Below are positions 14,521 to 15,786 of a DNA stretch of 42,208 nucleotides, in pieces. The stretch comes from an uncultured archaeon (GTDB lineage: Archaea; Asgardarchaeota; Thorarchaeia; Thorarchaeales; Thorarchaeaceae). The stretch spans positions 5,170 to 47,377 of the forward strand of contig CAZLEV010000020.1 in assembly GCA_964558645.1 (NCBI GenBank), in the 5' to 3' direction. The notes below the pieces were generated by a model. It was given only the letters and a program-made list of their open reading frames with translations. It made no database searches and was not told the DNA's origin. Positions within the stretch are counted from its first letter, which is position 1. Every line of letters begins with the position of its first letter. Position numbers and translations under genes: made by a program.

Positions 14521-15495
14521 ATGACAATTGCAATTCACGAATCGGCTCTGATTCGGCATTTTAATACGCGCAAAGAGACTCTTCGTATGTGGGAAGAGAA
14601 GATTGGCTGTAGGTTCTCTCCCTTCCGTGGGTTCAAGATGCCAGATAGCCGGTTGTACGTTGAACATCCTGATTTCTTAGACGCAATAGTTGACTTGGTC
14701 TTGACAAATGAAAGACATATCTTTCTCCGTGGAGCTGTCGGTTCTGGCAAGAGCACACTGATGCTTTTGGCCTTGCGAGATCTACCAACACTTGCTGATA
14801 GAAGAGGTAACAAGTTCGTCACTGGATATGTGGGCATGACGGGACTTTATGAGAAACAGATGGCTGCAGCAATCGCTGATTCTTTGCGTATCAAGTATCG
14901 GCGTTCTTGGGAGTCTAGTCAAATAATCGAAGCAGTGGCAGAAGAGTGCCTCAGACGATACATGGAGGAAAAAAGTAGAACTGCACTCTTCATTGAGGAT
15001 GTTGCTGATAACCAAGAAGCAGCATTTCACAAACTGCGATTCCTTGCAGACTTGCCTACTGAGGAGATGGTCGAAGAACATCCCGAACCGTTGGATGAAC
15101 CTATTGTCACTCTGATTATGTCAGGTACTGCCGAATACTGGAATGCTATGCTGAACTTCCTTCCCCAAATAGCAGATAGGACCGAACCATTGGATGTGCC
15201 ACCTTTGGATGATGCCAAGGCAAAGGAATTCATTGGTAGAAGAATTGCTTATGCGCGAGGAACCATAGATGAATTTGACAAGAAGGATTTTGATATCAGC
15301 CCATTCAGTGAGGAGGCAATCGAGATAATCAATGATGCAGCTGGCGGTAACCCGCGGGATATACGGATGCTAGCTAGAGGCTGTCAACAAGTTGCCGCAG
15401 AGAACTTCAAACAGCGAGGCGATCCAACCGTTGGCCGCGAGATAGCCAGTCTTGTTGCAGATGCTTATGATACCATACTCAGAGAGGTGCGTTAA
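14521..15495 (+). CDS. AAA+ ATPase (ExeA/Cdc6-like ATPase core, no C-terminal winged helix)
   Basis: Walker A GAVGSGKS, Walker B LFIED, LIMSG sensor 1, IADR arginine finger, FSEEAI...GGNPR sensor 2. Confidence 0.85.
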   Translation: MTIAIHESALIRHFNTRKETLRMWEEKIGCRFSPFRGFKMPDSRLYVEHPDFLDAIVDLVLTNERHIFLRGAVGSGKSTLMLLALRDLPTLADRRGNKFVTGYVGMTGLYEKQMAAAIADSLRIKYRRSWESSQIIEAVAEECLRRYMEEKSRTALFIEDVADNQEAAFHKLRFLADLPTEEMVEEHPEPLDEPIVTLIMSGTAEYWNAMLNFLPQIADRTEPLDVPPLDDAKAKEFIGRRIAYARGTIDEFDKKDFDISPFSEEAIEIINDAAGGNPRDIRMLARGCQQVAAENFKQRGDPTVGREIASLVADAYDTILREVR

Positions 15496-15786
15496 ATGAG
15501 TCTACTAGGAAAATACAGAAAGGAATCTGAGAAGGAGGAAGGCGAGGCTGCTTCTGATTCCACCACAAGAGTTCGTAAGGAAGAAGAAACACGGGAATCG
15601 GTTCCGAACAAAGAACGGAAGAGCCCTATTGTTTCATTTTCGATTGATGCAGATCTTAGGGAGTGCTTACAAGCTATCAGAAAAGCAAAAGCAATCAATC
15701 TGAGTATGTGGGTTGAGAAGAAGTTGAAAGCTGCAGTCTTTAGCGAGTTCCCACGCATAGCTGAGCAGTTCTTGGAATCTACCTGA
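15496..15786 (+). CDS. Ribbon-helix-helix DNA-binding protein with charged disordered N-tail (ParG/CopG-like architecture)
   Basis: Starts immediately after the ATPase stop (TAA-ATG). IVSFSID beta strand, LRECLQAIRK helix, NLSMWVEKKLKAA helix. Confidence 0.7.
   Translation: MSLLGKYRKESEKEEGEAASDSTTRVRKEEETRESVPNKERKSPIVSFSIDADLRECLQAIRKAKAINLSMWVEKKLKAAVFSEFPRIAEQFLEST

Follow-up and report, generated by a model that had tools for sequence, protein, structure and literature searches.

A conserved AAA+ ATPase-adaptor operon in a field of palindromic boxes beside a candidate replication origin of Thorarchaeia

How do Asgard archaea organize their chromosomes and pass them on? We know of no established mechanism for either process in these organisms, and the question is raised in concrete form by one locus on contig CAZLEV010000020.1 (C20; 47 kb) of a 3.63-Mb Thorarchaeia genome (G000). 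We analyzed a stretch of 42,208 nucleotides from this contig, referred to here as the window, in which a gene for a AAA+ ATPase is followed by a gene for a 96-residue protein that we call the adaptor. An earlier note on this DNA had proposed that the pair forms a new type of chromosome partition system or, alternatively, a split initiator/loader. What we observe at this locus are the two genes, their universal coupling, a unique field of GTAWTAC boxes around them, selection on these boxes, and linkage to a candidate origin. Our preferred interpretation, which we hold tentatively and at somewhat less than even confidence, is that the operon encodes a segrosome-like nucleoprotein system tethered to the origin. 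The anatomy described in the earlier note holds (operon, site field, and AAA+ motor), and the locus also flanks a candidate oriC; the partition role itself remains a proposal. Our literature searches found no paper on this combination of ATPase, adaptor, and box field, nor a mapped Thorarchaeota replication origin.

The two genes form the tightly coupled operon that the earlier note had described: the TAA stop codon of the ATPase gene (15493-15495) directly abuts the ATG of the adaptor gene, and GAGGTG is found 8 nucleotides upstream of this ATG. For comparison, we used 76 species-level loci related to the window, 73 of which include DNA downstream of the ATPase gene. The adaptor gene lies directly 3' of the ATPase gene in all 73, with a gap of 0 to 6 nucleotides in 72 loci and of 37 nucleotides in one. 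The proposed order of an NTPase followed by a ribbon-helix-helix (RHH) protein is thus universal in Thorarchaeia as far as the pair itself is concerned, and the RHH assignment rests on orthologues and a sequence pattern. In a survey that covered 400 genomes from the phylum, 77 of the 85 genomes in the window's family have the ATPase as a single copy, and it also occurs in one sister family and in another three families (9/12, 5/5, and 5/6 genomes). It was not found in the remaining families of the survey (for example, 0 of 135 genomes in the largest), and a match in 1 of 19 genomes of lineage f14 (E = 1e-196) is probably a misbinned Thorarchaeia contig. Four genomes of the same family without the ATPase are also without any box cluster. 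We rejected this co-loss as uninformative, however, because G326, a single-contig genome that is 86% complete and has no ATPase, also lacks HypF and the pair of origin elements described below; the whole operon region is probably unassembled there. A mobile-element or toxin-antitoxin reading was also rejected: the locus is present as a single copy, and throughout the class it keeps its synteny with housekeeping genes.

The operon is embedded in a dense field of short palindromes. GTAWTAC occurs 22 times in the window against an expected 2.2, a count reached in none of 100 shuffles. C20 holds 23 of the 184 sites in G000, ten times the density elsewhere, together with 19 of its 31 two-unit arrays and 7 of its 8 three-unit arrays in 9-bp phase. 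The unit of the field is GTAWTAC plus 2 nucleotides (GTAWTACNN), with boxes spaced by 9 bp 41 times and by 18 bp eight times, and the flanks extend the palindrome to TTGTAWTACAA. The earlier note had placed arrays in the operon promoter and on both sides of the operon, and this is what we found: arrays flank the operon, and the promoter array just upstream of the ATPase gene is a candidate autoregulatory or nucleation site. Arrays at 11176, 14463, 17415, and 18605 fall in promoter gaps; about half of the window sites are intragenic (in ACS, HypF, IOR, and a 410-residue open reading frame [ORF]), and the others lie between genes. The gene pair and the boxes also occur together across genomes, as had been suggested for checking: box density is 0.2 to 1.4 sites/kb in the 76 loci (0.5 to 1.4 in all but three) versus a G000 background of 0.05/kb, and the field in these loci is centered on the operon region. 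In nearly all of these loci, the gap upstream of the ATPase gene contains at least one box and the ATPase gene itself is box-free. The field extends from about -2.5 kb to beyond +10.5 kb relative to the ATPase start. In a complete Thorarchaeia chromosome (G001), the 20-kb bin richest in GTAWTAC is the bin at the operon, and 7 of 8 TGTAWTACA sites lie within 13 kb around it. Farther out, some 10 kb upstream of the operon, the gene at 2779-4698 contains a two-unit array at 4465-4480 (GTAATACTCGTAATAG; 13/14 matches), and related loci have a raised box density at -10 to -9 kb (0.35 to 0.5/kb), making this a sparse conserved outlier.

Intragenic boxes keep their position across species. Third codon positions within them are identical at a rate of 0.85 (n = 11), versus 0.55 for other conserved codons of the same genes (n = 839; P = 2.6e-5). 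Because synonymous positions in the boxes are nearly frozen while neighboring conserved codons vary, this comparison indicates that selection is acting on the DNA boxes, as is also the case for the largely intragenic SegB sites (PMC12284271), and that their retention is not a by-product of protein conservation. It also argues against a purely promoter-operator role for the boxes. HypF (20527-22872) contains arrays at 21014-21038, 21409, 22076, and 22576. Its zinc-finger coding region (…LCNTCNTGYT…) harbors box arrays in which synonymous sites are likewise frozen, and HypF may be held at the locus as a host of cis sites.

At the right edge of the field lies a candidate oriC, an inverted pair of 20-mers resembling origin recognition boxes (ORBs), and a third ORB copy is found farther downstream. 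These are the only good copies in the assembly, and their layout fits the general plan of archaeal origins (PMC4010727). Among five other Thorarchaeia genomes checked, all five have the lone ORB at +15 kb from the ATPase and three have the ORB pair at +11 kb; a reversed control pattern gave no matches. An Orc1/Cdc6 paralogue lies 33 to 35 kb downstream in five genomes. G000 has three full Orc1/Cdc6 genes; the paralogue in question is on contig C16, 7.5 kb from the contig end, which fits an offset of about 35 kb if C16 abuts C20, as it probably does. Both contigs have low GC (0.466 for C16 and 0.463 for C20 versus about 0.495). The operon-origin linkage recurs in most genomes checked, across three Asgard lineages. 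In the G001 chromosome, cumulative GC skew peaks locally at 1.805 Mb, which is 2.5 kb away from the ORB pair, and the contrast there ranks in the top 4.7% of positions; this signal is weak, has a sign opposite to the bacterial convention, and is a polarity switch at best. Within the window, skew on the + strand is positive at 11 to 23 kb and strongly negative from about 29 kb, switching near the ORB elements; its sign is again opposite to the convention for bacterial origins and may simply follow gene orientation. Because the skew is weak, the assignment of a candidate origin rests mainly on ORB architecture and synteny. Other palindromes (TTAGAACATGTGTTCCAA and TTGGAACACGTGTTCCAA) bracket the ORB pair, and a third palindrome copy lies upstream of a second gene for a 96-residue protein (25768-26058; not the adaptor); the stretches concerned are 25513-25766, 26074-26092, and 29868-29887, the last of which is the third ORB copy. 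The same palindromes (GAACAnnTGTTC) bracket the ORB pair in a distant lineage (locus L084, at 8906 and 9617), and a homologue of the 25768-26058 gene stands beside ORB elements in L084 and L116-L119.

The ATPase carries a classical Walker A motif (GAVGSGKS) and a AAA+ sensor 2 motif (GGNPR; nucleotides 15343-15357) and has a AAA+ fold, in agreement with the earlier description of an NTPase that is not of the ParA, actin, or tubulin type. No ParA-family match was seen among the ATPase profile hits. In an alignment of 19 sequences, G71, G74, G76, K77, G276, P278, and R279 are invariant, as are E159-D160, T203, and R220; S75, S78, and N277 are at least 90% conserved, position 73 holds either V or I, and the window protein has minority residues at two positions, A72 (consensus P) and G275 (consensus K). 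The usual Walker B pattern is hhhhDE. In the window protein the motif reads LFIED (nucleotides 14986-15000; residues 156-160), with E159-D160 invariant in Thorarchaeia, and a distant relative (P0257) retains DE. Judging from this motif, the ED order may result in slow, switch-like ATP turnover. Orthologues are about 80% identical across Thorarchaeia, and a profile search of 1.8 billion representative proteins returned only 27 matches.

By sequence, the nearest families of the ATPase all score below threshold. Pfam gave AAA_22 (PF13401) at 23.1 bits (cut-off, 27), together with AAA_16 and NB-ARC, and some orthologues carry a precomputed PF13401 match. The best NCBIfam family was TIGR03015, an ExeA-like PEP-CTERM ATPase (E = 1e-7; 31.6 bits, cut-off 324.5), and the Orc1/Cdc6 profile TIGR02928 scored 12.4 bits (cut-off, 181.3). 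At its N-terminus, the ATPase has a segment (…GCRFSPF…PD…) similar to the one with which ExeA-like proteins begin (cf. P0260), and the Joint Genome Institute (JGI) names many orthologues ExeA. The protein therefore groups weakly with ExeA by sequence, but its context does not point to secretion: the 324 residues include no transmembrane or peptidoglycan-binding part, and no secretion genes lie nearby.

Structure comparison placed the ATPase closest to replication initiators. An AlphaFold2 model (predicted local distance difference test [pLDDT], 76) matched Cdc6/Orc1 (PDB code 1w5t) in Foldseek with an E value of 2e-9. VIA-align likewise gave Cdc6/Orc1 structures, from both archaea and eukaryotes, as best matches (7jgr_G, Z = 15.6; 1w5s_A, 15.2; 2qby_B, 14.6), with Z scores of 13.3 to 15.6 over residues 25-324, compared to 13.2 for clamp loaders and 12.0 for TnsC, a margin of about 2 Z units. 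Residues 105-131 are basic and nearly invariant and sit where initiators carry a DNA-contacting insertion, the initiator-specific motif. There is no WHD_Cdc6 match in the ATPase, whose chain ends at residue 324, after the AAA+ lid; the earlier note had likewise considered a Cdc6-like core without a winged helix. Collectively, these comparisons suggest a AAA+ switch-type protein of the Orc/ExeA neighborhood, without a DNA-binding domain of its own beyond the possible initiator-specific motif.

The adaptor consists of a charged N-terminal region of about 42 residues, matching the tail of roughly 40 residues noted earlier, followed by a strand-helix-helix pattern. Its 384 homologues all come from the same clade. 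They share an almost invariant core (PNKERKSPIVSFSI..LR.CL.AIR..K.INLSMWVE..L), the C-terminal EFPxIA motif, and the invariant N-terminal peptide MSLLGKYRK, which includes K6-Y7-R8 and is carried on a variable charged linker. Among 25 Thorarchaeia adaptors compared to Pfam, no RHH family was matched except for CcdA once, at E = 0.061, and the family profile gave only chance matches against PDB sequences. Orthologues from lineage f13, however, have the same operon position, N-terminal peptide, and C-terminal motif (BLASTP E = 4e-11), and 4 of 4 match RHH_1 (PF01402) over the aligned core: two score above the cut-off of 20.5 bits (E = 6e-5, 23.2 bits; E = 2e-4, 21.5 bits), and the others have E values of 3e-3 and 0.04. 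One f16 orthologue matches Arc at E = 0.053. Because the f13 orthologues match RHH_1 and share the terminal motifs, the adaptor likely has an RHH core by transitive homology. Foldseek, which had been suggested for both proteins, was informative for the ATPase; with the low-confidence monomer model of the adaptor it found nothing.

The terminal peptide recurs in a variant operon (L083:486-2472 and L123:571-2603) that encodes an RHH protein of 61 to 66 residues, a homologue of the ATPase (E = 5e-70), and a KaiC-like ATPase with three copies of VLSKY[KR]K at its N-terminus. A six-frame translation of G000 matched the peptide pattern in three frames only, and the sole real one is the adaptor. Since the variant operon's KaiC-like protein repeats the peptide and the adaptor has the only real copy in G000, we infer that the peptide may be a docking or switching element for the ATPase. 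A possible second client was rejected as spurious: the one further frame in G000 that starts with MLSKYRK runs antisense to a membrane-protein gene, within it. The variant operon is followed by genes for membrane proteins and glycosyltransferases; its upstream context is cut by the contig end.

Comparison to sister lineages adds a third conserved neighbor. A 178-residue protein (u178) neighbors the ATPase-adaptor pair in all four lineages examined (L080, L084, L085, and L116-L122) and is probably a third component of the system; it is also a rival candidate for binding the field DNA. HypF adjoins u178 in every lineage examined. The f15 and f16 loci have a compact order, within about 10 kb, of cdc6, ORB, a homologue of the 25768-26058 gene (u96), ORB pair, ATPase, adaptor, u178, and HypF; there, the ATPase start is 0.9 to 2 kb from the ORB pair and the cdc6 homologue is 2.5 to 4.2 kb from the ATPase. 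Only in L084 did we see the gene for the PolD small subunit. The f13 operon has u178 and HypF as neighbors and is surrounded by tightly clustered GTAWTAC boxes. In the one f13 locus with gene calls (L080-L082), a Cdc6 gene is 10 kb away, but none of the f13 loci yielded an ORB copy within 10 kb.

These features can be assembled into a model of how an origin-tethered, segrosome-like system would work. The adaptor would dimerize via its RHH core and bind the palindromic GTAWTAC boxes cooperatively, presumably with one dimer per 9-bp unit. Binding to the array in its own promoter would give autoregulation, and the approximately 18 arrays spread over about 15 kb beside an ORB-type oriC would gather many adaptor dimers into one complex. 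The tail peptide MSLLGKYRK could then dock onto the ATPase and would probably stimulate its activity or switch it, such that the ATP-bound ATPase might oligomerize on adaptor-coated DNA. As a predicted outcome, the newly replicated origin region would be compacted, marked, or moved in a centromere-like manner. A bolder version of this model, which we regard as doubtful, would make the locus an example of a fourth class of chromosome-segregation machine, in which a AAA+ protein of the initiator/ExeA clade, in place of a ParA, actin, or tubulin motor, is switched by the terminal peptide of an RHH centromere-binding protein and the centromere is an origin-flanking region of about 15 kb that lies partly in housekeeping genes.

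Several observations weigh against a segrosome-like role. To our knowledge, ATPases of this class do not drive partition, and the predicted fold is closest to that of replication initiators. The box field is confined to one flank of the ORB pair. In f15 and f16 the module is kept with 0 to 3 boxes nearby, so its function does not require a large field; when other phased boxes were sought de novo in these lineages, only GGTATC/GATATC repeats upstream of the L084 ATPase came up, and these were too short to assess. The window adaptor itself has no RHH profile match at E ≤ 1, and its AlphaFold2 monomer model is poor (pLDDT, 60), with helices at residues 52-63 and 67-94 and no strand. Finally, the field contains other conserved candidate DNA binders (u178 and an HTH_3 regulator), and G000 has seven RHH_1 genes at other places; given these alternatives, the adaptor is a candidate rather than an established binder of the boxes.

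Given an Orc-like fold and a contact with the ORB pair that is ancestral, a role in replication control is nearly as likely as a segrosome-like one, although taken by itself it is still rather unlikely. Here, an Orc/Cdc6-like core would be aimed at oriC in trans by the adaptor, and perhaps by u178. It could act as an accessory initiator or as a helicase-loading or remodeling factor; alternatively, the field could serve as a zone for titration or licensing, duplicated at origin firing as is datA. Cdc6/Orc1 proteins are the best fold matches, the segment at the position of the initiator-specific motif is basic and nearly invariant, the only good ORB copies in the assembly are those of the window, and the module persists where the field is nearly absent. 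The split initiator/loader proposed in the earlier note gains weight because of the tight linkage to ORB and cdc6 in the sister lineages, where the order cdc6-ORB-ATPase-adaptor is compact. On the other hand, the three full Orc1/Cdc6 genes of G000 imply that no initiator is missing, the TIGR02928 score is far below cut-off, and the boxes, instead of flanking an unwinding element, extend over 15 kb and reach into genes. We also found no link to MCM or another replisome component.

Less probable still is a local transcription circuit, in which the adaptor would be a cell-cycle repressor of the aCcr1/CdrS type acting on its own and neighboring promoters, with the boxes as operators and the ATPase as its modulator or remodeler. 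The box equals the aCcr1-box, which lies between the TATA element and the start codon in repressed Sulfolobales genes (PMC9976878); many arrays in the window are in promoter gaps, and the adaptor shares its VSF strand core with aCcr1-like viral proteins. However, about half of the sites are intragenic or between convergent gene ends and are kept by selection at synonymous sites, the genes in and around the field (PAN, Trm5, NAC, ACS, HypF, and IOR) have no function in common, enrichment of the box is seen nowhere else in the genome, and the homology to aCcr1-like proteins is not significant. It is very improbable that the ATPase is an ExeA-type envelope/secretion or PEP-CTERM-like exopolysaccharide enzyme found in the field by chance beside an unrelated regulator: although TIGR03015 and, weakly, AAA_22 are its nearest families, the ExeA label is common among its orthologues, and one distant homologue lies upstream of glycosyltransferase genes, its scores are far under the cut-offs, the chain ends after the AAA+ lid without a membrane or peptidoglycan part or secretion genes nearby, and its coupling to both adaptor and origin region has been conserved across four lineages.

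The locus thus offers a candidate oriC, a unique cis field whose boxes are retained even at the expense of codon choice, and a conserved ATPase-adaptor pair whose motor belongs to a class not known from partition systems; all of these are directly testable. If the ATPase acts on the field, it would link an Orc/Cdc6-type AAA+ fold to origin organization or segregation, as a new mechanistic class. If true, this would be relevant to the way in which the handling of chromosomes was coupled to origin recognition before the rise of eukaryotes. The least ambitious interpretation, an aCcr1-like regulator with an ATPase, would still extend a family of Sulfolobales cell-cycle factors to Asgard archaea. 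The features on which these considerations rest are listed in Table 1.

Table 1. Positions of the operon, its encoded motifs, the box field, and the candidate origin in the window
Feature	Position	Strand	Remarks
AAA+ ATPase gene	14521-15495	+	324-residue ORF
ATPase, ExeA-like N-terminal region	residues 1-60		
ATPase, Walker A	residues 71-78		
ATPase, Walker B	E159-D160		LFIED
ATPase, Arg finger	R220		candidate
ATPase, sensor 2	residues 275-279		GGNPR
Adaptor gene	15496-15786	+	96-residue ORF
Adaptor, N-terminal peptide	15496-15525	+	MSLLGKYRK(E); invariant
Adaptor, linker			variable, acidic/basic
Adaptor, RHH-like core	about 15625-15735	+	PIVSFSI...INLSMWVEKKL; sequence pattern
Adaptor, C-terminal motif			EFPxIA; conserved
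Box field	11176-26406	.	about 18 arrays in 9-bp phase
Array starts	11176, 13790, 14463, 15914, 15974, 16403, 17415, 18272, 18605		
Array starts, continued	19334, 19935, 21014, 21409, 22076, 22576, 22877, 24361, 26400		
Promoter array	14463-14487	.	three units; 58 nucleotides upstream of ATPase ATG
u178 gene	17724-18260	+	178-residue protein; weak similarity to sigma-70 region 4 / DUF134-like helix-turn-helix (GVSRGAFNRTLHQARRNV)
Inverted ORB-like 20-mer pair	25569-25737	.	TCTAsTGGAAAyGAAGGGGT; 129-bp AT-rich spacer; candidate oriC, right edge of field
Third ORB copy	29868-29887	+	15.3 kb downstream of ATPase start

By analogy, the anatomy of this system matches that of the ParF-ParG, delta-omega, and SegAB partition cassettes, with a motor of a different class. 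As in the type Ib cassettes (ParF-ParG of TP228 and delta-omega of pSM19035), an NTPase gene is followed by a gene for a small RHH-type protein (probably so in the window) with a flexible basic N-terminal tail, and short tandem repeats, such as the heptad arrays to which omega binds, occur both in the promoter of the operon and outside it. This comparison draws on established knowledge of ParF-ParG and delta-omega. It rests as well on a review of such systems (PMC9178275). In contrast to these cassettes, the window NTPase is a AAA+ protein with a classical Walker A motif rather than a ParA with a deviant one (KGGxxGK), and the window system is chromosomal, with a field of about 15 kb that enters coding sequence and a probable third, conserved partner in u178.

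The closest archaeal parallel in layout is SegAB of the Sulfolobales, likewise a chromosomal two-gene operon of an NTPase and a small DNA-binding protein (the latter role being putative here). SegB sites are palindromic, clustered near the operon, and mostly intragenic (84%; PMC12284271, PMC8682754), and the window boxes are also palindromic, near the operon, and partly intragenic. SegA, however, is of the ParA type, and SegB sites (TCTAGA-S-TCTAGA) also occur chromosome-wide, whereas the window boxes form one field only. We saw no sequence relation between SegA or SegB and the window pair.

The box itself resembles that of aCcr1, an RHH protein of the Sulfolobales whose target is a palindrome of 9 bp, A(T/G)G(A)TA(G)A(T/G)TACN (AGTAATACN), as determined by electrophoretic mobility shift assay and by chromatin immunoprecipitation followed by sequencing (PMC9976878, PMC13199686). 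The core and unit length are the same as those of the window unit, to which the adaptor is predicted to bind. VSF is the strand core both in the adaptor and in aCcr1-like proteins encoded by the virus ATV; an hhalign comparison of the adaptor with ATV ORF60 was not significant (E = 0.047; probability, 1%), and BLASTP of an f13 orthologue against ATV ORF59b gave an E value of 0.049. From gene order, we take ORF60 to be gp29. Unlike the window adaptor, aCcr1 is a stand-alone protein of about 60 residues with sites at many promoters; the adaptor has a 42-residue tail with an invariant terminal peptide, the EFPxIA motif, coupling to an ATPase, and a single site field.

The ATPase, in turn, shares features with several AAA+ groups. 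ExeA/GspA-like AAA_22 proteins (COG3267) are its nearest family by sequence, with xFxPF before Walker A and a GxPR sensor 2. TnsC, which with TniB and MuB belongs to the related DNA-bound switch ATPases, is a match by fold (Z = 12). Both TnsC and MuB form a coat on DNA, and a terminal peptide of a partner acts as their switch; we propose the same behavior for the window ATPase. It differs from ExeA, TnsC, TniB, and MuB in having no secretion or transposition context, no membrane or peptidoglycan part, and scores below the cut-offs. The best structural match of its base and lid is to Orc1/Cdc6 (Z = 13 to 15.6), and ORB elements are adjacent to the operon. In contrast to Orc1/Cdc6, the window ATPase is without a winged helix, scores far below the TIGR02928 cut-off, and has ED rather than DE in Walker B; its targeting to DNA appears to be supplied in trans.

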